From: an uncultured delta proteobacterium
GTDB lineage: Bacteria; Desulfobacterota; Desulfomonilia; UBA1062
Assembly: GCA_963798485.1 (NCBI GenBank)
Contig: CAWCTR010000008.1
Span: 1 to 64,000, forward strand
Direction of reading: 5' to 3'
DNA length: 64,000 nt
A model generated the notes under the pieces. It was not told the DNA's origin and did no database searches. It worked only from the letters and a program-made list of their open reading frames with translations. The position numbers and the translations under genes are program-made. Shown in pieces: positions 1-64,000 of this stretch. The stretch's first letter is position 1, and every line of letters starts with the position of its first letter.

Positions 1-1055
1 CTGAAGGCCTTTTCCTGCTCTTCGCTCATGGTGTAGTTCTTTGTTGTCTGGTTTATGATAGCCTGCTCCAGTACATGATCGTTTGAAGATGTCATGACTC
101 TCGCATTGTCGAGCATGGTCTTCTCGCTCATCATCATGGTGCGGGTCGAGAACAGGTCTTCCCCCTTCTCGTTTATCCCGATCTTGACAGTTTCTCATGC
201 TGTTCTCAAGGGCAGAGAAAACACGGTTGAACTGATCCGCATCAGCGCTATGCCGGAAGGCAAAATCCATGATGTCTTCCCGCTTGAACACGGCATCATA
301 ATGTCCAACGAGTTTCAAGGCTTTTGCTGGATCGTTGATAATCCGTTCTCCGTTCTCGCGGCATATCCTCTGGTACTCTTCCAGGCGATCAAGACCTCGG
401 GTTTCTTGTAGATGGAGGTAGCCTTTGGGCAGGTATTTTGCTGCGATCCCGATCTTCGATGTTGGCTCAAGGTCAATGCCTCTATCTGCAAAGCTCCTAT
501 GGTCAACCTGGATATCATGACCTGCTTCCAGTAATTTCCGGTTCTGGATATTCGCCCATTCCTCCCGCCACTTCAGGAGTTCTGCTTTATCATTCCATGC
601 AGTAACCTTTTTACCAAAGCCATCTCTGGTAACTTCCCTGGTGGTAAGCATGATATGAACATGAGGATTTTTATCGCTCTTGTGGATGCAGATGTCGGCT
701 ATCATTCCCTTGTCTACGAATTGTGTCTGTGCGTATTCTCTTACAAGCGCAACCTGTTGTTCATAGTTCAGCTCTTTAGGAAGACCTAACTCGACTTCTC
801 GGAGAGGCGAGAGTCTTTTCGTTTTTCAGCTTTTTCGACTTCATTCCACAGCGTTTGCCGGTCTTTCAATCTCTGGGGTGCGTTTTCCGGAAGGAGGATC
901 TCTGCATAGGCAAGGTCGTTTTTCTTCGAATAGTCGAACGTCATGTCCAGGCGTTCATCATAGAGTTTATCTCGCGAGCGGTATGCAGCTGCGGCAATGG
1001 CGCCTTTGCCCCCTCCCCTCCCGATTATTTTAACAGTGATATGATAACAAGCCAT
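1..1055 (-). pseudogene. traA: MOBQ (MobA/MobL) TraA-type relaxase, frameshifted, runs off the window
   Basis: N-terminus MACYH..AAAAYR; after a frameshift near 800 it continues REVELGLPKEL..ADICIH..NPHVHIMLTTR (3H motif)..VDHRS; a second shift near 195 restores GEDLFSTRTM..MSEEQEKAF. Confidence 0.85.
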
Positions 1056-3952: not shown

Positions 3953-4348
3953 ATGACGATTTTACCACGTGGCCCTATGATCGCTCCACAATATCCACTA
4001 TTGTTAACGGTTCCTGAGTTATCTGCATATCTGGGCATTAAAATCAAAACCCTCTATGCCAAGATAGAAGCAGGGGAAATCCCCCATTATCGTTTAGGTC
4101 GCCTCATCAGGTTTCGTTTGGACGAAATCAATGCCTGGCTGGAAGGCTGCAGGAAGGATATCTCTCAAGCCGCAGGGCAAAGTCAGAGTAGAAAAAGAAA
4201 AAAGCCATCTCGCAGATCAAATGACCATGTATCCGCGATTATTGCAAAGACGATTGACGGAGAGCGCGAGAAATATTACGCTTCGGAATACGGGAAATCA
4301 GACCGGATTGAGGGCCTCGGAAAGGAGGTCAACAATGGGATTATTTAA
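3953..4348 (+). CDS. Excisionase-family HTH protein
   Basis: [33 protein letters not shown]; overlaps the integrase start. Confidence 0.85.
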
Positions 4349-5381
4349 ACGCAATTCGGTCTGGTGGATGAGTTTTACTCATCAAGGCCAGCAATACAGG
4401 CGTTCAACGGAAACAGATGACAAGAAGCTGGCGCAACGGATCTTTGACAAACTAAAGGGTGAAATCGCGGAAGGGAAGCATCATTGGGTGAGTTCTGAGA
4501 ATGTTGAGTTTGAAGATCTGGTGAAGGACCTTATTAACGATTACAAGTTAAACAGCCGTAAATCCTTGGATCGTGCATCATTGAGCGTGAAACATCTTAG
4601 TTCTTTCTTTGGAGGCATGAAAGTCAAAGATATTACATCGAACTTGATCCAGAGCTATATTCTTGTCAGGAGAGAAGAGGGGGCTAGCAATGGGACTATT
4701 AATAGAGAGCTCTCTGCTTTAAATCGAATGCTCACACTGGGTGCAAGACATACACCGCCCAAGGTTATCAATCGACCGTTTGTGCCAAAGCTCAAAGAGG
4801 CACCACCCAGGGAAGGTTTTTTCGAGCATGAGGAATATATTCGCTTGCTGGATTTGTTGCCTGATTATTTAAGACCTATCCTGACTATAGCTTATTTTAC
4901 TGGCATGAGAAAACGGGAGATTCTAAGTTTGACATGGGATCATACCAACCTTATTGAAAAAAAGATCACCCTCAGAGCAGGGACTACAAAAAATGATCAG
5001 GGAAGGACAATCTTTTTATCAGGTGAACTTTATAACACTATCCTGCAACAAAAGAAGTTAAGAGATGGTGTTTATCCGGACTGTCCTTATGTTTGTTTCA
5101 GGGAAGGACATCAGATAAAATATTATAAAGATGCTTGGCACACCTCATGTAAAAAGGCTGGATTGGTCGGGAAGTTACTACATGACAACAGAAGAACTGC
5201 TGTGCGAAACATGTCAAGAGCAGGGATACCTGATACTGTTATAATGAAGATCTCGGGTCATAAAACACGGTGTGTCTTTGACAGATACAATATCACAAGC
5301 GAAGATGATCTACGTATTGCTGCCGAGAAAATTGCAAAGGTATATCAAGACAAACAGGCATCAATCGAACCATCGACTTGA
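4335..5381 (+). CDS. int: Tyrosine recombinase / integrase
   Basis: AGGAGG RBS; catalytic TGMRKRE, TKN, LHDNRRT, SGHKT, DRYN. Confidence 0.95.
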
Positions 5382-53492: not shown

Positions 53493-55925
53493 TTAATTCG
53501 GCTTCTTTTTATAGGTATTGCGGGGCCCGCCGCTGTTACCCTTGCTGCCGGAACCCTCCGGCAGGCGGTGCGCCTGGAAGGTCTCTGCACGTTGTTGCCC
53601 TATGTTGCGCGCTGTTCGCTCCTGTTCCAGGCGCGGCGTCACCCGGCCCTGTTCCTGCCCCTGAGCCGCTCTGGGGGCGCTAACGTGCTGCCAGGCTCCG
53701 GTCTGGCCTTGATGGAGGTAGACATTTCCTTCGTGTGTTGCATAGGCGTTGTTTCCCTCGGTTTCGCTCGGTTTTTCCCTGGAGGGTATGATTACCCGGG
53801 CAGGTGGGAGTTTCCCCTCGGTCAGGGCACCTTCAATCTTTTTTCCACCCTTCCCGATTACCTGCCTGGATTGTGGCGTTGCCATGCCGGCAGGCGACGG
53901 CCTGTTGTAAGCGGTTTTATTTCCTGATGGGAGTATCCCTCGAGATGGTGCGGCAAGATTGACGTTCGTACCTGAAGGATTTTTCATGCTGTACACGTTT
54001 CTTTCAGCATTACGGTGTCCTGTGATAAGCGTTCCGGTTGTGGAGTTATAGGCCATGCCGTATCTCGTGGATGAGCCACTGCCGGTGATGGGTCGATATT
54101 CGGCGGCAGGCCTTGACACCTTAGCATCTTTCCCCCACAGGCGGTATATATTGCTCGTTGTGCGTGCCCATCCGTCGGGGCCCCATGCCCTGATACGGGA
54201 TTGAGGGTGATGGCGCCAACCCCAATAGGGTCCCCACCAAGGCGCAGGCGGGTAATACCAGTATGGTCCCGAACCCCAAAACCACCCGAAGCCGAAGCTG
54301 AAACTCCAGCCCCCCCACGGGGTCCAGCTTATATCGGCCCCGTTGCAATATGTAACAGGGGGGCCATACCAGTACCTGCCGATCCAGGGCTGGTAATGAT
54401 AGCCCGTACCGTAGACCACAACATAATCAGGGCTTACCATACATCCATAATAACCAGGGGTGTAGCCGCTGTACACATAGTCAGGATCGGCATTGTAAAT
54501 CCGCACATACGTGACGAAGTGAAGGGGGGAGCCAGGTGGGATGGAATATATCACTCCCGGCACATGATCCGCCACCACCCAAGGACCGTCCAGTGAGTTT
54601 GCAAAAAACCAGACACCGTTTTCGCACGCATACCACGACCGTTCATTTTGCTTGATGATGGGGGTAGGGCTGTTGACTACATAGAAAAGCGGGGTTCCCT
54701 CGATTGGGGAAATTTGGGCCACGCCGTCTATCTGGGGTATGAAGGCGGCCTCTTTTCGGTCTATCTTTGCGGTCTGGGGAATGGAATTGGCAATAAGGGC
54801 CTCTTCTGCCTGGTCCGTTCCGGGTACTGACGCCTTCACATTCTCTTGCGGGCTCTCATCAGGAATACCGGCGAAGTCAGCAGGCAGGTGTTTACCGGGA
54901 ACATATTCCCATGGACCATTGAATGATACCGCCTTGAACCAGCGCCCACAGAGGAGGACATAGGTCTTCTGATCACCAAGATACTTGAACACATGTGCGC
55001 TCGTATTCTTCACATAGAGGAGTTTTGTCCCTTGTATGGGCACATAATTCGGTACACCGTCGGTCACGATGAGCTCTGCGGGTGTTGTAGAGACAAATAC
55101 AAGGGGCCCGACCTCTTCAAGGGTCGGATACTTGTTGGTTTGAGGATCGGCTTGACCTTCGAGCAGGTCTATCTGTTCCAGGCTGCGGGCCTCATTCATG
55201 GCTACAGAGATGTCCCTGGGTAGTTTTCTCGCAATAGTCCAGGGTCCATTCAGGCTCTGCGCCTCCATGAAGCCATTGAAAAGGTGGAAATAGTATTTCG
55301 CAGCCTTATCCTTGAGGAGGAGCACACGGGTATTTATGAGGCGCATGAGGGAACTGCCCTTGACAGGCATATAGCGGGGCTCGCCGTCGATGAACACCAG
55401 AACAGATGGCCGCTGTGAGAAGATGATGCGAGGGGGGGTGTTGTTAAGGGGTAGGGTTTTAACCTTTTTTTGTTCCTTGGTGACAGCCAGGCTCGCTTCC
55501 AGCCGGTCGAGGGACATGTTCTTCATCTGTGGCGGCCATGCCTGGCGCAATTCCGCGAGGATGGATGACTCTCTTGCCGGGTCGGATGGAAACTGTACGC
55601 TGGTAATGGCAAGGTCATTGAAATAAACCATGCGGTCGTTCTTGTCCACGATGGTATGTGCGGTGAGATAGGCCACTCCATAAAGGGATTGCTGCTTGCC
55701 GGGATTTCTCACGGCAAAGGCTGCATATGCCTTGAGCGTGAATCCGTCCCACGAGTCGAGTTGCGGCTGGAAAACCGTGTTCATGGTTCCGTCTGAGGCC
55801 TGGAATACCCTCGGCCAGCCATGATCCATGGGTTTTTCATCCTGTGCGGAAGACCTGGTTGATGGCAGGACGAGAGTAAGGATCATAACAGCCATGACGA
55901 ATGCTCGTCTTATATATATATCCAT
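53493..55925 (-). CDS. Large secreted protein with W/Y/G-rich segment and disordered tail
   Basis: GGAG RBS, signal peptide, three ..GPW repeats, aromatic low-complexity block. Confidence 0.7.
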   Translation of the reverse strand: MDIYIRRAFVMAVMILTLVLPSTRSSAQDEKPMDHGWPRVFQASDGTMNTVFQPQLDSWDGFTLKAYAAFAVRNPGKQQSLYGVAYLTAHTIVDKNDRMVYFNDLAITSVQFPSDPARESSILAELRQAWPPQMKNMSLDRLEASLAVTKEQKKVKTLPLNNTPPRIIFSQRPSVLVFIDGEPRYMPVKGSSLMRLINTRVLLLKDKAAKYYFHLFNGFMEAQSLNGPWTIARKLPRDISVAMNEARSLEQIDLLEGQADPQTNKYPTLEEVGPLVFVSTTPAELIVTDGVPNYVPIQGTKLLYVKNTSAHVFKYLGDQKTYVLLCGRWFKAVSFNGPWEYVPGKHLPADFAGIPDESPQENVKASVPGTDQAEEALIANSIPQTAKIDRKEAAFIPQIDGVAQISPIEGTPLFYVVNSPTPIIKQNERSWYACENGVWFFANSLDGPWVVADHVPGVIYSIPPGSPLHFVTYVRIYNADPDYVYSGYTPGYYGCMVSPDYVVVYGTGYHYQPWIGRYWYGPPVTYCNGADISWTPWGGWSFSFGFGWFWGSGPYWYYPPAPWWGPYWGWRHHPQSRIRAWGPDGWARTTSNIYRLWGKDAKVSRPAAEYRPITGSGSSTRYGMAYNSTTGTLITGHRNAERNVYSMKNPSGTNVNLAAPSRGILPSGNKTAYNRPSPAGMATPQSRQVIGKGGKKIEGALTEGKLPPARVIIPSREKPSETEGNNAYATHEGNVYLHQGQTGAWQHVSAPRAAQGQEQGRVTPRLEQERTARNIGQQRAETFQAHRLPEGSGSKGNSGGPRNTYKKKPN

Positions 55926-55996
55926 ACAGGAGACCTCCTTAGTTTCAGGACATTTATAATGGCTCATCGATGTGTCTTGGCCGGCACATGCCGGTG

Positions 55997-56668
55997 TTAC
56001 TCCAGCCAGCCTTTGTCCTGCCAATACCGATATTCCCAGTCCCAGCGGTCTTTGCGCTTGATCATGATGTCCCGGAAATACCCGCGCATCCCTGCAATTG
56101 TCTGGAGCTGATCGGGGAATCGGCGTTTCTCTGCGATGGCCCTGACCAGATCCCGGCCCAGTTCGCCTGAGCGTTGCATGATATCCGATCCGGCCGCCAT
56201 GGGACCATCATCCAGGATACAGGCTATCTTTCCCACATCCTGCACCCCCAAACGGTTCAGGAGCGAGTGCAAGTAATCCGAGGTTTCAACCTGCCCGGAC
56301 CCCCCCGCCGTGGCCGCCACGGCGCCGTACTTGCCGAGCAGCCGCTGGCAGTGAATGGCATTCCCGAGCCGGTCGATGAAGGCCTTTAACTGGGCCGTGA
56401 CTTGGTAGATGTACACCGGGCTGCCGAGCACGATACCGTCGCTGGCGCACATCTTCTCGAACAGACCATTGAAATCGTCCTTCTGCACGCATACGCCCAG
56501 GTGATGGCACCGATCGCACCCGATGCAGCCGCCGATGGTCAGGGTGGTGATATCGATGTATTCCGTTTGCGCCCCGGCCGCCCCCGCCCCCGCAAGGATC
56601 TCTCCTACGATCTGTCCGGTACGGCTGAGACCCTTCCTGGGACTGCCGTTTACGGCTATGATTTTCAT
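55997..56668 (-). CDS. Iron-sulfur flavoprotein (FMN reductase family)
   Basis: NGSPRK, CIGCDRC..C, GSPVY. Confidence 0.88.
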   Translation of the reverse strand: MKIIAVNGSPRKGLSRTGQIVGEILAGAGAAGAQTEYIDITTLTIGGCIGCDRCHHLGVCVQKDDFNGLFEKMCASDGIVLGSPVYIYQVTAQLKAFIDRLGNAIHCQRLLGKYGAVAATAGGSGQVETSDYLHSLLNRLGVQDVGKIACILDDGPMAAGSDIMQRSGELGRDLVRAIAEKRRFPDQLQTIAGMRGYFRDIMIKRKDRWDWEYRYWQDKGWLE

Positions 56669-56987
56669 GCGTCTGCACCTCCGTTTCTTATGACTATGTA
56701 GCACTGAATCCCAATTACATCAAACAGGAGGTTGTCTTCCACCTCTATGAGTCCGTTTTCATAGCGTTCTCTGGCGAGCCGGCTTTCCCGCTCACCTGGC
56801 ACCATGCATGTCTTAAAAAGCCAAAAACAAGACCTAACATCCTCGCTTTCCAGGACATTATAAAAGAGTCGAGAGACACAAATTTGCATCTCGTATTGTT
56901 TACTCCAAAATTTTGTTTACTGTTTATATTAACAAGTGATAGCAGTCTTCCTGGATTGGTCATATGACTGCTGATGTGGGAGGGGGC

Positions 56988-57906: not shown

Positions 57907-58815
57907 ATGGAAGACCTCGGAAAACCTGACATTCCAGTCTGGATTGAAGACATGCTCCCTGCAGGGGTTCACCGCAAGGTCGTGGATGTCGGCGGGCAAC
58001 TCATGCATGTCATGGAGTGGGGTGAGGGAATGCCGGTGCTCATGCTCCATGGCAACCCCACCTGGGGCTTCCTATATCGTAAAATAGTACACCTCCTGAA
58101 AGATATGCCGGTGCATTGCATTGTCCCGGATATCATCGGTCTCGGCTTTTCCAGTAAGCCGCGATCATTTAAGGATCATAGCCTTATCAACCACGCCTCA
58201 TGGTTAGGTTCATTTGTAGAATCCGAGGGACTTGAAGGTATGATCCTCGTATGCCAGGACTGGGGAGGACCCATCGGGGTAAGGACCCTTGCAGACAGGC
58301 CCCATTTATTAAAAGGTTTGGTGGTCCTGAACACCGCACTCCGACCACCCCACCAAGGATTTCGACCCACATTGTTCCACCGATTCAGTAATCTTCCCTT
58401 CATAAGCGATTTTGTTTTCAGGCTCCTGGGTTTTCCGCAGAACGTCCTATATAAGACACAGGGAGATCAATCGTCAATTCAGGGCAAGGTTGCATGGGCC
58501 TACCGATATCCCCTTCGCCATATATCCGACCGAATTGCACCCCTGGCCCTTGCACGCATGGTGCCGTCATCTCTCACACACCCAAGCGTTAAGGGGCTTA
58601 AGGTATGTGAGGAATTCATCCGGACCTTCCATGGACCTGGCGCTATTGTATGGGGAGAGAAAGACCCTATCCTGGGCAGAGTGCTCCGCAAGACAATGGA
58701 AATCATGCCCGATGCATCAGTGCAGCGCACAAAGGCCGGCCACTTTATCCAGGAAGAGGAGCCTGATGCAATAGCCCAGGCAATAAGAGAGGTTTATGAA
58801 CACTGCAAAACATGA
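57907..58815 (+). CDS. Haloalkane dehalogenase-like alpha/beta hydrolase
   Basis: HGNPTW, GLGFS, QDWGG, GHFIQE. Confidence 0.88.
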   Translation: MEDLGKPDIPVWIEDMLPAGVHRKVVDVGGQLMHVMEWGEGMPVLMLHGNPTWGFLYRKIVHLLKDMPVHCIVPDIIGLGFSSKPRSFKDHSLINHASWLGSFVESEGLEGMILVCQDWGGPIGVRTLADRPHLLKGLVVLNTALRPPHQGFRPTLFHRFSNLPFISDFVFRLLGFPQNVLYKTQGDQSSIQGKVAWAYRYPLRHISDRIAPLALARMVPSSLTHPSVKGLKVCEEFIRTFHGPGAIVWGEKDPILGRVLRKTMEIMPDASVQRTKAGHFIQEEEPDAIAQAIREVYEHCKT

Positions 58816-58904
58816 TGGAAGAAGCTATTGATTTCTCTTACGACGACTTTATTTAAAAGCTATACTCTATGGCATTGAGCTTTCCTGGAATAAAGGGTGT
58901 GTTC

Positions 58905-59041
58905 ATGAAAAGAATACTTATAGGTATCTTGATGATATTGATTCCGTGAAAGGTCGTGGAATAATGCAGCCTGTTGCCCTGAAGCCCGACGAGATCAAGG
59001 CGGTGATTGAATACATGACACACACTTTTAAAAAACAATGA
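58905..59041 (+). pseudogene. Internally deleted class I cytochrome c
   Basis: Signal MKRILIGILMILIP joined out of frame to VKGRGIMQPVALKPDEIKAVIEYMTHTFKK; paralog of 63793-64000. Confidence 0.75.
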
Positions 59042-59087
59042 ATATCACCAAACATTGTGTTCAGGCAAAATCCGAAGGAGGAAAGAG

Positions 59088-60449
59088 ATGAAGAGAATGA
59101 TATTCAAGAACTTGATTATCGTTCCGGTTTTCTTCTGTGTGTTCCTGTTCTTATTATCACTCAATGCTTATGCAATACCGAGTTATGCACGCCAGACAGG
59201 TATGTCCTGCAGTGCCTGTCACACTTCTTTCCCTGAGCTGACGCCCTTCGGCAGGCTCTTCAAACTGGGCGGTTATACCCTGAGCACGAGCGATAAACCC
59301 TATGAATTTCCTCCTCCCTTGTCGGCCCAGGCCCAGTTTTCTTATACGAATACGGGGAAAGCCCAGCCTCCGGATACAGTGGAGAGAGATTGGGCAACGA
59401 GGATGTCTTCTCAACAGAATAACTTTCTTAATGTACCGCAGAGTTTGAGCCTGTTCTATGGCGGCAAGATCTATTCCGGCATAGGCGCCTTTATCCAGGG
59501 CACGTATGATGGCGTCGATGATAGAACCGCGCTTGACACGATGGACATCCGTTTTGCCCAGAGCGTGGCCTACGGTGAAAGGAACCTCATATATGGCATT
59601 ACCATCAACAACAATCCCACAGCCCAGGATGTCTGGAACAGCACTCCCGCCTTCGGCTACCCTTACTCCGGATCGAGCGTTGCCCCGACTCCGACCGCAG
59701 CTGCGATCATCGATGGTACTCTCGGGGGGCAAGTGAGCGGCATCGGAGCTTATCTCTTCTGGGACAATATGATCTATGGTGAGGTTTCCGTATACCACTC
59801 AAACGAGAGCGGCCCCGGTCAGATCTTCAAAGGGAATAACGTGATCGATACGGTACTGGACGGCGTTGCTCCTTACTGGCGGATAGCTATTGAACATCAA
59901 TGGGATAAGCATTGCGCATCCATAGGCACGTACGGGATGGTGTCAAAGATATTTCCTGGCGGCGTAGACAGCGGACCAAGCGATAGTTTCAGGGATTTTG
60001 CCGTGGATGCACAATATCAGTATATCGGCGTCGAGCATGTCTTTTCAGCCCAGACATCATGGATTCATGAGAATCAGGACTGGGGTGCGAGTTTTGATCA
60101 GGGGGACACTGCCAATAAGACCGACCACCTTAATACATACAAGCTGAATTTGAAATATTATCACCGGGGAAGTATGGGCGACATGGGGGGTACGCTGGCC
60201 TATTTCTCAACGTGCGGTGATAAGGATACAGGGCTGTATAACCCCGACGACACCCCAGGCATCAACGGCAAACCCGATAGCAGCGGTTTCATCTACGAAC
60301 TGAATTATGTTCCCTCGAAATGGAGTAAGATAACCCTTCAATATATTTCATATAACAAATTCGACGGCGCCCGTTCAAACTATGACGGATCGGGAAGGGA
60401 TGCCTCAGACAACAACACGTTTTATTTTCTTCTCTGGCTGATTATCTGA
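59088..60449 (+). CDS. cyc2: Cyc2-type monoheme cytochrome-porin fusion
   Basis: Signal AYA then IPSYARQTGMSCSACHTSFPELTPFGRLFKLGGY; remainder is amphipathic beta-strands ending FYFLLWLII; 453 aa. Confidence 0.88.
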   Translation: MKRMIFKNLIIVPVFFCVFLFLLSLNAYAIPSYARQTGMSCSACHTSFPELTPFGRLFKLGGYTLSTSDKPYEFPPPLSAQAQFSYTNTGKAQPPDTVERDWATRMSSQQNNFLNVPQSLSLFYGGKIYSGIGAFIQGTYDGVDDRTALDTMDIRFAQSVAYGERNLIYGITINNNPTAQDVWNSTPAFGYPYSGSSVAPTPTAAAIIDGTLGGQVSGIGAYLFWDNMIYGEVSVYHSNESGPGQIFKGNNVIDTVLDGVAPYWRIAIEHQWDKHCASIGTYGMVSKIFPGGVDSGPSDSFRDFAVDAQYQYIGVEHVFSAQTSWIHENQDWGASFDQGDTANKTDHLNTYKLNLKYYHRGSMGDMGGTLAYFSTCGDKDTGLYNPDDTPGINGKPDSSGFIYELNYVPSKWSKITLQYISYNKFDGARSNYDGSGRDASDNNTFYFLLWLII

Positions 60450-60771
60450 TTGTTTAGGTGACGAGACGGTTATTCGACTGTTGACTGTACAGACATGATC
60501 CCATAGTTTTGAAGGCCGCGATGGGGTGCTCTTATCTTCATCCTACCCTTTGTGCTGTTCTGGGTCATCAGTCATATTTTCCCCATTTTTGAACAAGAAA
60601 AGGCTCACTAAATCTGCAAGAGCCTTCTCTCACGGGAGACCCGCTGTCAGCAGAGGACGCTCAAAAAATTGAATGTAATGTTGTATTCTCTTCGAAATTA
60701 TTCTACAATGTGCACCATATTTGCATTTTTCCTTGAATAACGCCGATCCAACACTGCCCCGGGGAGATGAT

Positions 60772-61287
60772 ATGGAAGAAGGAAACAATGCATCCTGGCG
60801 TTGCTGTCTCATTGCATTCCTGACAGTGGTCTTTTTCTCTGCAAATATGTATGCGGAAGAACAGGATATACCGAAAAAGTTCTTCGTCACGCCGCCCCCG
60901 TTCAGTGCAGGCATCTATCCTTGCTCAATGTGCCACAAAGGCTTGCCCGCCAACACACAACCAAGAAAACTTCAGTTCCATGGTAACATCGTTCTGAAGC
61001 ATATGCCCGGCGGCTGGTGCTTCGAATGCCATAATCCGGACAACAGGGACAAATTACGGCTCGCGAACGGCAAATTGATCAGCTTTGAGGAATCATACAA
61101 TCTCTGCGGCCAGTGCCACGGAACGATACTGCGAGAATGGAAGGCCGGCCTGCACGGGAAGAGGACCGGCATGTGGAAAGGCGATAAGCAGTACTATCTT
61201 TGCGTAAGCTGCCATTCGCCGCATGAACCGCGGTTTAAGCCGATCAAACCGTCTCCACCGCCGGTGAGTCCGATGGAGATCAAGTAA
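60772..61287 (+). CDS. Periplasmic tetraheme cytochrome c
   Basis: Signal peptide; CSMCH, CFECH, CGQCH, CVSCH. Confidence 0.88.
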   Translation: MEEGNNASWRCCLIAFLTVVFFSANMYAEEQDIPKKFFVTPPPFSAGIYPCSMCHKGLPANTQPRKLQFHGNIVLKHMPGGWCFECHNPDNRDKLRLANGKLISFEESYNLCGQCHGTILREWKAGLHGKRTGMWKGDKQYYLCVSCHSPHEPRFKPIKPSPPPVSPMEIK

Positions 61288-61311
61288 TACATAACGAGGA
61301 CGAGAAGACCG

Positions 61312-62238
61312 ATGCAAAAAACCGTGAAGAAAATGGATGTAATTCATCTTGACCGCAGGACCTTTCTCAAGGGCGTGGCCCTCGGCCTGGCGGGGACAGC
61401 GCTCCCGCTGAACAAGGCCGATGCCTCGTTCTGGGAATCGTTTTTTCAGAAGCACTTTAAGGAAATGAATGATGCCGAGATCAAGCAGGTGCTCGGCCGT
61501 CTGGAGCGGGAATACGAAGAAAAATATAAAAAAGTGATCAAGGTTGGCAATCAGAAAGCGATGCCGGGAGTTATCTTCGGTTACGGGCTCGATCTTTCCC
61601 GATGCATCGGCTGCAGGAGATGCGTTTATGCCTGCGTTGAGGAGAACAATCAATCCAGGGACCCGCAGATCCACTGGATATCGGTCCTCAGATTCAAAAA
61701 AGGGGAAAAGTGGGTCGATCTTGTGGAATCGGAGAAGTATTACAACCCGGAAAAGGTGCCTGAAGAGGGATATTTTTATATGCCGGTCCAATGCCAGCAG
61801 TGCAAGAACCCGCCCTGTGTAAGGGTCTGTCCTACGCAGGCCACCTGGAAAGAGCCGGACGGGATCGTGGTCATCGATTATAACTGGTGCATTGGCTGTC
61901 GCTACTGCATGGCCGCCTGTCCCTATGGGGCGCGCCACTTTAATTGGACCGATCCGGGCCGCAAGTCAGGCGAGATCAATCCGCAGACGCATTATCTCGG
62001 GAACCGCCCGCGCTATAAAGGAGTGGTTGAGAAGTGCACCTTTTGTATCCAGCGGACGAGGAACGGACGCTACCCGGCGTGCGTTGAGGCCTGCCCCGTA
62101 GGCGCGCGCAAATTCGGGAACCTCCTTGATCCGAACAGCGAGATCAGGTACGCCATTGAGCACAAGCGGGTGTTCCGGTTGAAAGAGGACTTGAATACGT
62201 ATCCCACGTTCTATTATTTCTTTGCGTACGGCGTGTAG
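61312..62238 (+). CDS. Tat-exported 4x[4Fe-4S] protein (NrfC/DsrO/QrcC-like)
   Basis: DRRTFLKG; CIGCRRC, CQQC..PC..CP, CIGCRYC..CP, CTFC..PAC..CP. Confidence 0.92.
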   Translation: MQKTVKKMDVIHLDRRTFLKGVALGLAGTALPLNKADASFWESFFQKHFKEMNDAEIKQVLGRLEREYEEKYKKVIKVGNQKAMPGVIFGYGLDLSRCIGCRRCVYACVEENNQSRDPQIHWISVLRFKKGEKWVDLVESEKYYNPEKVPEEGYFYMPVQCQQCKNPPCVRVCPTQATWKEPDGIVVIDYNWCIGCRYCMAACPYGARHFNWTDPGRKSGEINPQTHYLGNRPRYKGVVEKCTFCIQRTRNGRYPACVEACPVGARKFGNLLDPNSEIRYAIEHKRVFRLKEDLNTYPTFYYFFAYGV

Positions 62239-62249
62239 GAGACCCACGT

Positions 62250-63482
62250 ATGGCAAGTTTGATCAAAAATTCTTTTATCGCCTTCCGTCAGATATTCATC
62301 GGCAACCGGGCTTACTACCTCTGGGTCGGCTTCCTGACGTTTTTTATTCTCCTCGGACTGGGCGCGTATATTGATCAGTACCACCGGGGACTCATAGTAA
62401 CCGCCATGAGGGATCAGGTTTCGTGGGGGCTGTACCTCTCGAATTTCACCTTTCTTGTCGGTGTGGCTGCCGCCGCAGTGTTGCTCGTGGTTCCGGCTTA
62501 CGTGTATAACTTCAAGCCGATCAAGGAAATCGTGCTGTTCGGCGAGCTGCTCGCCATCACGGCCATAACCATGTGTATCCTCTTCATAATGATCGACATG
62601 GGGCAGCCTCTGCGGGTATGGCATATTTTGCCGTTCATCGGCGCCATGAATTTCCCTTCGTCACTGCTCACCTGGGACGTGATCGTCTTAAGCGGATATC
62701 TCGCCATCAATGTAATCATTGCATTTTACGTTCTCTCCCGGCTTTCGATCGGGAAGGAGTACAGTATGGCCGTGATTTGGCCGCTGATCATTCTGTCCAT
62801 TCCATGGGCGGTGAGCATCCACACGGTGACGGCGTTCCTCTATAACGGACTCTCGGCCAGGCCCTTCTGGAACGCCTCGATCCTGGCCCCGAGGTTTCTT
62901 GCTTCGGCGTTCTGTTCCGGACCCGCCATCATGCTGGTCCTGTTCCAGATCATCAGAAAACGTTCTGAGGTAGAGATCGATAACAAGGCGATCTTCAAAA
63001 TCGCCGAATTGATCGCCTATGCCATGGCGATCAATTTGTTCCTTCTGGGCGCAGAGGCATTCAAGGAATTTTATTCGGGCGCCGTTGACAGCTATTCCAT
63101 AGAGTATCTGTACTTCGGCCTAAAGGGGAAAGCGAGCCTGGTGCCCTGGATGTGGGCCGCATCCCTGTTCAATATCACGGCGTTCTTTCTCTTTCTCTTT
63201 CCGAGGACACGTGAGAATTTCACGACGCTAAACATCGGATGTGTGCTGATCATTATGGGCGTGTATATAGAGAAGGGGATTGGGCTTATTGTACCCGGCT
63301 TTGTTCCGGATACACTCGGGGAGATTTATGAATACTCTCCGAGCTCAACGGAGATTGTCATTACCATGGGCGTATGGGCTTTCGGTGCGCTTATCTACAC
63401 GATCCTGCTGAAAATTGCAGTGCCGATCTATACGGGAAAACTTCGGTTCGAGATAAAAGAACGGAACGTTATCACGCGGTAA
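62250..63482 (+). CDS. NrfD/PsrC-family membrane anchor
   Basis: About 10 TM helices; VSWGLYLSNF, DMGQP.R, SIHTVT, PRFLASA. Confidence 0.92.
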   Translation: MASLIKNSFIAFRQIFIGNRAYYLWVGFLTFFILLGLGAYIDQYHRGLIVTAMRDQVSWGLYLSNFTFLVGVAAAAVLLVVPAYVYNFKPIKEIVLFGELLAITAITMCILFIMIDMGQPLRVWHILPFIGAMNFPSSLLTWDVIVLSGYLAINVIIAFYVLSRLSIGKEYSMAVIWPLIILSIPWAVSIHTVTAFLYNGLSARPFWNASILAPRFLASAFCSGPAIMLVLFQIIRKRSEVEIDNKAIFKIAELIAYAMAINLFLLGAEAFKEFYSGAVDSYSIEYLYFGLKGKASLVPWMWAASLFNITAFFLFLFPRTRENFTTLNIGCVLIIMGVYIEKGIGLIVPGFVPDTLGEIYEYSPSSTEIVITMGVWAFGALIYTILLKIAVPIYTGKLRFEIKERNVITR

Positions 63483-63574
63483 TGCAGCATTCAGTGAGTT
63501 GCGTCCGGGCTCTCGGCTAGGAAGCAGGTGTTTACGAGCGGTCGACGTGATCACCTCATGGGCGCCATCTACGC

Positions 63575-63664
63575 TCCGGTGGGTCTGTACATCTACTGAT
63601 AACAGACTTAGCACACAGAAAAAACAGGAACAATAAATAGCTTGTTTAATAACATACTATTCAT
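63575..63664 (-). pseudogene. Remnant of a second cyc2 5' end
   Basis: AGGAGG then MNSMLLNKLFIVPVF[fs]CVLSLLSVDV versus cyc2 MKRMIFKNLIIVPVFFCVFLFLLSLNA. Confidence 0.6.
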
Positions 63665-63792
63665 CTTTCTCTTCCTCCTGTAATAATTGTGCTGTGTGTC
63701 CATCACAGGTGAAGGTTACTCTATAAAGACCTCCATATATCGCCATGAGGGACGTATGTCCGATGGCTACTTTATTCGATAAATATCTCTCA

Positions 63793-64000
63793 CTATTTTT
63801 TGAATGAATTTGCCATATATTCGGTTATGGCTTTGATCTCATCAGGTTTTAAGGCAATAGGCTGCATGATGCCAGATCCTTTTGTGATGGCTTTGGCAAT
63901 CTCAGTGTCGGTGTTTTTCTTCCAGAAGTTTGATTTTGTAAAATTGGTCGGCTTTGGTTTGAGCGCAGGTGCTGCCTGACCTTTCCCATCACCGTTTACG
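63793..64000 (-). CDS. Class I cytochrome c, C-terminal part (start beyond the window)
   Basis: VNGDGKG..LKPKPTNF..ITKGSGIMQP..DEIKAITEYM; CxxCH expected just outside the window. Confidence 0.75.
   Translation of the reverse strand, partial: VNGDGKGQAAPALKPKPTNFTKSNFWKKNTDTEIAKAITKGSGIMQPIALKPDEIKAITEYMANSFKK

Follow-up and report, generated by a model that had tools for sequence, protein, structure and literature searches.

A 64,000-nucleotide (nt) stretch of DNA from an uncultured delta proteobacterium (GTDB lineage Bacteria; Desulfobacterota; Desulfomonilia; UBA1062) was analysed computationally (NCBI GenBank assembly GCA_963798485.1, contig CAWCTR010000008.1, positions 1 to 64,000 of the forward strand; the whole stretch is called the window). 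Near its end, a gene for a fused cytochrome-porin of the Cyc2 family (cyc2) is followed by genes for a tetrahaem cytochrome c, an iron-sulfur protein with a twin-arginine translocation (Tat) motif and an NrfD-family membrane subunit (together, the module), all on the same strand and all where the initial annotation of this DNA had placed them. That annotation had taken the genes for a candidate electron conduit spanning both membranes. We read them instead, with a probability of about 0.55, as two separate, known kinds of electron-transfer unit lying side by side, which make up no conserved joint system. The first unit would be the remainder of two inverted pairs in which a class I cytochrome c gene preceded cyc2, and the second (60772–63482) an operon of the dsrOhPh-tetrahaem type with its own upstream region. 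Among the loci compared, cyc2 and the module were adjacent in one lineage only, after local rearrangement, and the arrangement is not a conserved system. The open reading frames (ORFs) concerned and the spacer between them were as follows.

59088..60449, plus strand: cyc2 (ORF-A), Cyc2-family fused monohaem cytochrome-porin of 453 amino acids (aa), apparently intact, as judged by motif, length, a single CXXCH, a barrel model and porin fold matches
60450..60771: spacer of 322 nt, from the cyc2 stop to the tetrahaem ATG
60772..61287, plus strand: ORF-B, periplasmic tetrahaem cytochrome c of 171 aa with predicted bis-His ligation (four CXXCH and four conserved His; Pfam Cytochrome_C7 and Paired_CXXCH_1)
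61312..62238, plus strand: ORF-C, Tat-exported protein of 308 aa with four [4Fe-4S] motifs, DsrO homologue (NCBIfam DsrO, 196 bits; RRTFLK; 16 Cys)
62250..63482, plus strand: ORF-D, NrfD-family membrane subunit, DsrP homologue (NCBIfam DsrP, 424 bits; Pfam NrfD)

The frame of ORF-A is open from a TTG (59055–60449), and ATG 59088 was preferred as the start because AGGAGG precedes it and the resulting 453 aa fit the lengths of the homologues (452–455 aa). Cyc2 proteins have been defined by a signal peptide, one CXXCH, the pattern AXPXFAR[Q/K][T/Y] before it and PXL four residues after it, a length of at least 365 residues and a 16-strand porin resembling OprO/OprP (Keffer 2021). ORF-A begins with a hydrophobic leader whose last residues, A-x-A, immediately precede the motif; by inspection, this leader lines up with those of 39 homologues. 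The stretch before the haem site is A-x-P-x-Y-A-R-Q-T, in which the strict pattern is broken at one site (F to Y; F was found at this position in at least 90% of 40 aligned family members), the single CXXCH occupies residues 41–45, and P-E-L begins at the fourth residue past the CXXCH His and was invariant in the 40-sequence alignment. An AlphaFold2 model made with that alignment had 16 strands (predicted local distance difference test (pLDDT) 73, predicted template modelling score (pTM) 0.77). When it was compared with the PDB by Foldseek, 238 matches were obtained at an expectation value (E) of 0.001 or less; those listed were nearly all outer-membrane porins (down to E = 2.5e-8, with OprP, 2o4v, at rank 12), and their template modelling (TM) scores were 0.32–0.46, so that the likeness to PDB porins is one of fold only. 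No useful match was obtained for the ORF-A sequence in Pfam, NCBIfam or PDB sequences. Of 8000 candidates scored, at least 5443 proteins were homologues at E ≤ 0.001, and the handful with names were all labelled 'hypothetical protein'; neighbouring ESM Atlas clusters included a 'Cytochrome C family protein' of Thermodesulfobacteriota and another with Porin_O_P in 20% of its members. Relatives were common in genome bins of Thermodesulfovibrionales and 'Deltaproteobacteria'. By motif and model, ORF-A is predicted to be a genuine Cyc2-type outer-membrane cytochrome-porin gene, which agrees with the published definition save for F to Y, and the Cyc2 signature and β-barrel of the initial annotation, which had proposed structure prediction as a check, are thereby borne out.

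ORF-B probably starts at ATG 60772, which gives 171 aa as in its homologues (574 were found). Exactly four His besides those of the four CXXCH were present, all of these sites were kept across 42 sequences, and four bis-His haems are therefore predicted. DsrJ was not matched at E ≤ 0.01 in NCBIfam, a library which we take to contain a DsrJ model, there was no sign of a Cys-ligated haem, and likeness to NrfB was marginal (E = 0.0012); the AlphaFold2 model of ORF-B was poor (pLDDT 47, pTM 0.31). The 16 Cys of ORF-C are arranged in four cluster motifs behind the Tat motif RRTFLK. Its best NCBIfam match, DsrO, lay just under the cut-off of 200 bits, and its scores for Qrc, Nrf, Ttr and Hmc proteins were far under theirs; for the module as a whole the values were 126 bits for NrfC (cut-off 378), 19 for NrfD (348), 158 for QrcC (400) and 47 for QrcD (570). 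Relatives of ORF-C in the PDB were ArrB, PsrB and the C-terminal Fe-S part of ActB chains of about 1000 aa. ORF-D passed the cut-off of the DsrP equivalog NF045798 (350 bits), covering model positions 3–344 of 346, scored 124 bits on Pfam NrfD and has at least nine hydrophobic segments; its nearest PDB relatives were chains of the ActC/ActF type from alternative complex III (ACIII). Redox enzymes were looked for in 62 window ORFs, made up of the 61 largest that do not overlap and of the incomplete cytochrome c gene at 63793–63999, and none of these encoded a molybdopterin, hydrogenase, NrfA, QrcB, DsrM or DsrK protein or matched DsrJ. The initial annotation had reported the first three of these absences, which are thus upheld for the scanned ORFs. 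Its module free of a catalytic subunit therefore stands as described but is not novel, for it matches a locus in print since 2026, dsrOhPh-tetrahaem or DsrOhPhCyt, in which DsrO and DsrP homologues occur with an all-His-His periplasmic tetrahaem cytochrome away from dsrMK(J) (PMC13047784; bioRxiv 2026.08.25.746951). The sequences of ORF-B, ORF-C and ORF-D fit an operon of this kind. Homologues of the module proteins were widespread in Nitrospirota and other phyla. ORF-D was unusually conserved: its best 120 matches (clusters at 90% identity) were 83–97% identical to the window protein, the few named ones among them being NrfD/PsrC, polysulfide reductase or DsrP from bins of Nitrospirota/Nitrospirae and Betaproteobacteria. 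The tetrahaem partner was less conserved than the NrfD-type subunit (55–78% identity).

Linkage was examined in loci obtained by a profile search of genomes with the ORF-A alignment, which returned 327 relatives; the best 80 of the 327 were kept and lie in 79 loci (numbered L001 onwards). In these, window proteins were sought with tblastn and with phmmer searches of all ORFs from 50 aa upwards, nucleotide matches to the window were sought by blastn, and a module was counted as near a cyc2-like gene within 8 kb. The conserved partner of cyc2 was a gene for a small class I cytochrome c, immediately upstream and in the same orientation, which was present at 51 of the 79 cyc2-like genes that had at least 700 nt of upstream DNA (80 examined); the 28 genes lacking it were mostly from Pseudomonadota, with some from Syntrophobacteraceae. 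The initial annotation had named linkage in other genomes as a point on which its proposal could fail. Homologues of ORF-B and ORF-D near a cyc2-like gene were found in two of the 79 loci only, L036 (a Desulfomonilia bin) and L038, and a third, L012, gave a weak and distant Fe-S match. Over 11.4 kb, L036 aligns collinearly with L038 at 94.7% identity, and the two are therefore counted as a single lineage. In both, the module lies on the opposite strand to, and convergent with, the cytochrome c-cyc2 pair, and their cyc2 products are 47–48% identical to ORF-A and belong to a different, well-supported clade on two quick, mutually agreeing trees, on which all clade statements rest. Window positions 60523–63509 (2987 bp) were 96% identical to L036 and L038, with unrelated flanks; this block begins 249 nt before the ATG of the tetrahaem gene and ends 27 nt beyond the stop of ORF-D, and in neither locus is there a cyc2 upstream of it. 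On the far side of the module in L036 are isochorismatase and che genes. The same-strand order of cyc2 and module in the window was unique among the loci seen, and the linkage of cyc2 with the module is weak.

The spacer, given as about 320 bp in the initial annotation and measured at 322 nt, is of two kinds of DNA. Bases 60523–60771 (249 nt) are the module's own conserved upstream region, and bases 60453–60522 matched none of the 79 loci. A promoter and terminator scan of 58700–64000 gave nothing above shuffled expectation, and an Rfam search of 58500–64000 gave no match. Outside the 96% block, the window was compared with the closest cyc2 locus, L001, whose cyc2 product is 84% identical to ORF-A (aa). 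L001 matched in four pieces (58949–59035; 59076–60452, which is cyc2; 63498–63586; and 63588–64000), from which the following further features were defined.

58949..59035, plus strand: class I cytochrome c relic, the last 29 codons (3′ end) of a gene whose 5′ part is gone (77% identical in nt and 79% in aa to the corresponding end of the L001 cytochrome c gene)
63498..63586: fragment matching L001 DNA about 300 bp downstream of cyc2 (91% identity to L001 6173–6261, reversed)
about 63588..63664, minus strand: dead stub of a second cyc2, signal-peptide codons only (tblastn pieces; within an 89% match to L001 4180–4601)
63793..64000, minus strand: class I cytochrome c, C-terminal 68 codons, running off the window (aa sequence 94% identical to that of the L001 cytochrome c; weak matches to Pfam Cytochrome_CBB3 and Cytochrom_C)

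The last of these is the adjacent class I cytochrome c of the initial annotation, present as a partial gene; the remnants at 58949–59035 and about 63588–63664 are additional to the features named there. Upstream of the cytochrome c relic, a hydrolase gene ends at 58815. The piece 63588–64000, reversed with respect to L001, consists of cytochrome c, spacer and only the first 84 nt or so of cyc2; in L001 the corresponding cytochrome c directly precedes cyc2. The cyc2 stub is frameshifted and stops before the haem motif, reading from ATG 63664 closing after 18 codons. An independent repeat search returned an inverted repeat around the module (58949–59041 and 63790–63882, 72% complementary). The window's two copies are 72–77% identical to each other and are therefore old paralogues, not a fresh duplication. 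Most simply, these sequences would be what is left of two inverted cytochrome c-cyc2 pairs, formerly one on either side of the module, each of which has lost a gene. In the first pair cyc2 (59088–60449) would have survived and most of the cytochrome c gene disappeared; in the second the cytochrome c gene (63793 onward, minus strand) would have survived without its cyc2. One inversion alone, or a duplication in the recent past, was rejected as the cause, since L001 has no module downstream of cyc2 and the copies are only 72–77% identical. An assignment of the 63793–64000-type cytochrome c to the Leptospirillum 'cytochrome 579' was likewise rejected: this was the top NCBIfam match in four of six full-length copies, at 35.7–44.3 bits, far below the cut-off of 280, and therefore reflects generic class I similarity.

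As two units, the products would act as follows. The Cyc2-family protein would lie in the outer membrane and exchange electrons between a soluble periplasmic cytochrome c and a soluble species outside the cell, for example Fe(II)/Fe(III). In the module, the DsrP homologue would bind menaquinol/menaquinone, by analogy with DsrMKJOP, the four [4Fe-4S] clusters of the periplasmic DsrO homologue would relay electrons to the four bis-His haems, and the complex would serve as a menaquinol:periplasmic cytochrome c oxidoreductase whose haems reduce soluble periplasmic cytochromes. The host is probably an anaerobe. Menaquinone has a potential of about −74 mV. The potential published for Cyc2PV-1 is +208 mV (Keffer 2021), so that outward flow would be downhill and flow from Fe(II) to quinone would require energy. 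A cryo-electron microscopy preprint on DsrMKJOP proposes that quinol is oxidised at DsrP and that DsrO relays its electrons to the cytochrome; the mechanism of the NrfD family is treated by Calisto and Pereira (2021). By this analogy, flow in the module from quinol to the periplasm is more likely than the reverse, and the electron uptake favoured in the initial annotation is disfavoured on both grounds. The two units might be coupled through the periplasmic cytochrome c, by a putative step between the tetrahaem and the class I cytochrome c.

Under the chief rival explanation, both units would form a single conduit from the cell surface to the quinone pool, in which electrons are exchanged in series between DsrP homologue, DsrO homologue, tetrahaem cytochrome, class I cytochrome c, Cyc2 and extracellular iron or another soluble redox species, most likely outward from menaquinol, the inward path from Fe(II) being an energy-requiring reverse route. 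We consider this doubtful, although several observations speak for it and weigh against the interpretation as two unconnected units. In all three genomes in which the module was seen here (window, L036 and L038) it adjoins a cytochrome c-cyc2 pair, and the pairs belong to two different cyc2 clades on the quick trees, which hints at an adjacency that has persisted through sequence turnover, more than by chance; the three genomes are, however, close relatives whose modules are 96% identical in nt sequence, so that they amount to roughly one evolutionary observation, and the orientation of the module differs among them. The absence of a detected terminator from the 322-nt gap means that read-through from cyc2 into the module may occur, but the module has its own upstream region and the window arrangement includes decayed genes. 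Cytochrome b/Rieske genes were found beside cyc2-like genes in nine of the 79 loci, in two of which (L003 and L060) they lie directly upstream of cytochrome c-cyc2 on the same strand, and a connection between Cyc2 and the quinone pool may thus be recurrent; the module itself is lacking from 77 of the 79, and although homologues of its proteins are widespread in Nitrospirota, no Nitrospirota cyc2 locus among those fetched holds it. Every redox part of the proposed chain faces the periplasm, as judged from the Tat motif and signal peptides, and the chain has a published analogue (Cyc2 to Cyc1 to ACIII/bc1 to quinone, with the ACIII genes of Sideroxydans being among those whose expression rose most on Fe(II)), whereas uptake into the quinone pool would be uphill at the potentials given above. 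Of the conduit in the initial annotation there remain the identities of its parts and a reasonable Cyc2-to-quinone route that mirrors a published model; linkage in two of 79 loci, flanking remnants and a separate upstream region tell against the rest.

It is improbable that the Cyc2-like protein and cytochrome c serve metal handling, that is, detoxification of Fe(II) or Cu(I) at the envelope, with no functional tie to the module. Near cyc2-like genes, P-type ATPase genes were present in 11 of the 79 loci, RND permeases in nine and sensor kinases in nine, which hints at a metal-stress context for some members of the family, and a cupredoxin-domain protein in L046 and a protein with MopE-type metal-binding motifs downstream in L001 would agree with it. 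Each such neighbour, however, occurs in a minority of loci and none in the window, and two of the three ATPases typed were copper-translocating while the third (L037) was of the proton-pump type; a reading as a copper system, drawn from these neighbours, was dropped because the cluster mixes both kinds of pump. A related Cyc2, of the Cluster 3 type, is moreover read in print as an energy-yielding Fe(II) oxidase. An assembly artefact, in which repeated cytochrome c-cyc2 paralogues mis-joined contigs of related strains, would account for the abrupt change, at either edge of the 2987-bp block, in identity to L036 and L038, and several cyc2 genes per genome are common (three loci each in OY970295 and CAWAGW01; two tandem pairs in L017). 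We regard it as highly improbable, since the junctions lie outside the repeats and since relic and stub are frameshifted and diverged (72–77% between the window copies), which a mis-join would not create. Two neighbouring units brought together by rearrangement remain the preferred interpretation.

Other neighbours of cyc2-like genes in the 79 loci were recorded. A fusion of DUF2231 and class I cytochrome c of about 235 aa was present in 20 loci, in 17 of them following the cyc2-like gene in the same orientation (examples are L011 9429–10136, L028, L040, L043 and L052; the window has no copy), and could be an inner-membrane electron acceptor. The cytochrome b/Rieske-type loci were L003, L060, L046, L049, L051, L059, L050, L057 and L005; in L003 (5073–7619) and L060 (5109–7586) a single ORF of 825–848 aa combines cytochrome b, two cytochrome c domains and Rieske. 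A dihaem cytochrome lay downstream of cyc2 in eight Pseudomonadota loci and an octahaem cytochrome nearby in four loci of the Syntrophobacteraceae type, where a putative cupredoxin-domain protein was also noted, the domain being confirmed by Pfam in L046 only. P-type ATPase genes just downstream of cyc2-like genes were found at L008 9268–11409, L012 9387–11570 and L037 9445–12054. Downstream of the closest relative of ORF-A, L001 7322–9409 encodes a 695-aa protein with PKD domains and two putative metal-binding motifs of the MopE type. Genomes with several cytochrome c-cyc2 pairs were common in Thermodesulfovibrionales and 'delta proteobacterium' bins; L015, L019 and L034 lie on the chromosome OY970295 and L010, L041 and L065 in one bin, and L034 holds a split or partial cyc2 copy.

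The other genes of the window include housekeeping genes (Era, Der, RNase III, FtsY, LeuA, MiaB, class I fumarate hydratase and MobA). A relaxase fragment of the TraA/MobQ type running off the window start (1–705, minus strand) and a tyrosine recombinase/integrase (4131–5381, plus strand) suggest an integrated mobile element at the far end, with no evident tie to cyc2 or the module. An ORF of 843 aa (53493–56024, minus strand), with an N-terminal hydrophobic segment and a region rich in Trp, Tyr, Gly and Pro, matched no Pfam or NCBIfam family; it is adjoined by a gene resembling flavin mononucleotide (FMN) reductases with a Cys cluster (55997–56704).

The locus touches two questions in print, the role of Cyc2 homologues outside the classical iron oxidisers and the role of the dsrOhPh-tetrahaem complex; it places both side by side in one anaerobic lineage and answers neither. 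Tentatively, the complex might be the inner-membrane partner of cytochrome c and Cyc2 in a Desulfomonilia-like lineage, a placement that follows here from the 96% identity of the module to that of a Desulfomonilia bin, giving a route from menaquinol to the surface or the reverse. If so, the neighbourhood would be the first genomic clue to the role of the complex, that of feeding periplasmic cytochromes linked to an outer-membrane conduit, which is the job also speculated for it in cable bacteria. If the coupling is not real, this is an ordinary case of two known modules made neighbours by rearrangement. A more solid by-product is the class I cytochrome c-cyc2 pair as a conserved unit in the large Nitrospirota/Thermodesulfobacteriota clade of Cyc2; it is often trailed by the DUF2231-cytochrome c membrane protein and offers a unit for studying electron hand-off in anaerobes.

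Among known systems, ORF-A shares with the Cyc2 family the signal peptide, N-terminal CXXCH, PXL, length of about 450 aa and predicted 16-strand porin, and carries the family motif before the CXXCH with Y in place of F, which breaks the strict pattern. The Cluster 3-type Cyc2 of 'Ca. Mariimomonas ferrooxydans' (Thermodesulfovibrionia), an anaerobic lineage, oxidised Fe(II) when expressed in E. coli, and its nearest match was a protein from a 'Deltaproteobacteria' bin; relatives of ORF-A are common in the groups named in that paper (Thermodesulfovibrionales and 'Deltaproteobacteria' bins). Where the initial annotation saw Cyc2 in a host not known as an iron oxidiser, the protein is indeed encoded, but Cyc2 in anaerobic Thermodesulfovibrionia was already in print.

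The published model for aerobic neutrophilic iron oxidisers, in which Cyc2 passes electrons by way of Cyc1 and ACIII/bc1 to quinone, resembles the window in having Cyc2 in the outer membrane, a small cytochrome c in the periplasm and a quinone complex of the NrfD type with multihaem and Fe-S parts. The window differs in that the module is not ACIII, the host is probably anaerobic, there is no terminal oxidase close by and only one lineage shows the linkage. ACIII has an ActB with a molybdopterin-like domain, both ActC and ActF and a pentahaem ActA, whereas the window has one NrfD-type gene, a four-haem cytochrome and, in the 308-aa ORF-C, a protein that aligns only to the C-terminal Fe-S part of ActB and lacks the molybdopterin-like domain. 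With DsrMKJOP the module shares a subunit above the DsrP equivalog cut-off and one just under that of DsrO; DsrMKJOP has a DsrMK core and a trihaem DsrJ, whereas neither DsrM nor DsrK was found among the scanned ORFs and the four-haem cytochrome did not match DsrJ. NrfBCD of NrfABCD and QrcABCD follow the same plan of periplasmic multihaem protein, Tat Fe-S protein and NrfD anchor, but the window scores were far under the NrfC, NrfD, QrcC and QrcD cut-offs, that for NrfB was marginal, and no NrfA or QrcB was present in the scanned ORFs.

The closest counterpart is the dsrOhPh-tetrahaem locus, reported from cable bacteria, some Desulfobulbales and Gamma- and Betaproteobacteria, including five of 16 genomes without sulfur metabolism, earlier called 'candidate alternative complex III' and described as being of unknown physiological role (PMC13047784; bioRxiv 2026.08.25.746951). 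In the accessible text of the cable-bacteria paper Cyc2 does not occur (0 occurrences) and a cytochrome c-cyc2 neighbourhood is not reported; in the accessible parts of the literature searched, no text placing cyc2 beside a dsrOhPh-type locus was found, one Sideroxydans study naming DsrP in an operon list only. The window module shares with the published locus the DsrO homologue, the DsrP homologue and the four-haem bis-His cytochrome without dsrMK or a catalytic subunit, and lacks the TMH1 gene, which is said in that paper to be unique to cable bacteria; the match is one of description and NCBIfam scores. Cyc2 in anaerobic lineages, the idea of a Cyc2-to-quinone route and the module free of a catalytic subunit are all already in print, and beside these systems the cyc2-module neighbourhood is a lineage-specific and modest lead on the function of the module, not a new system.

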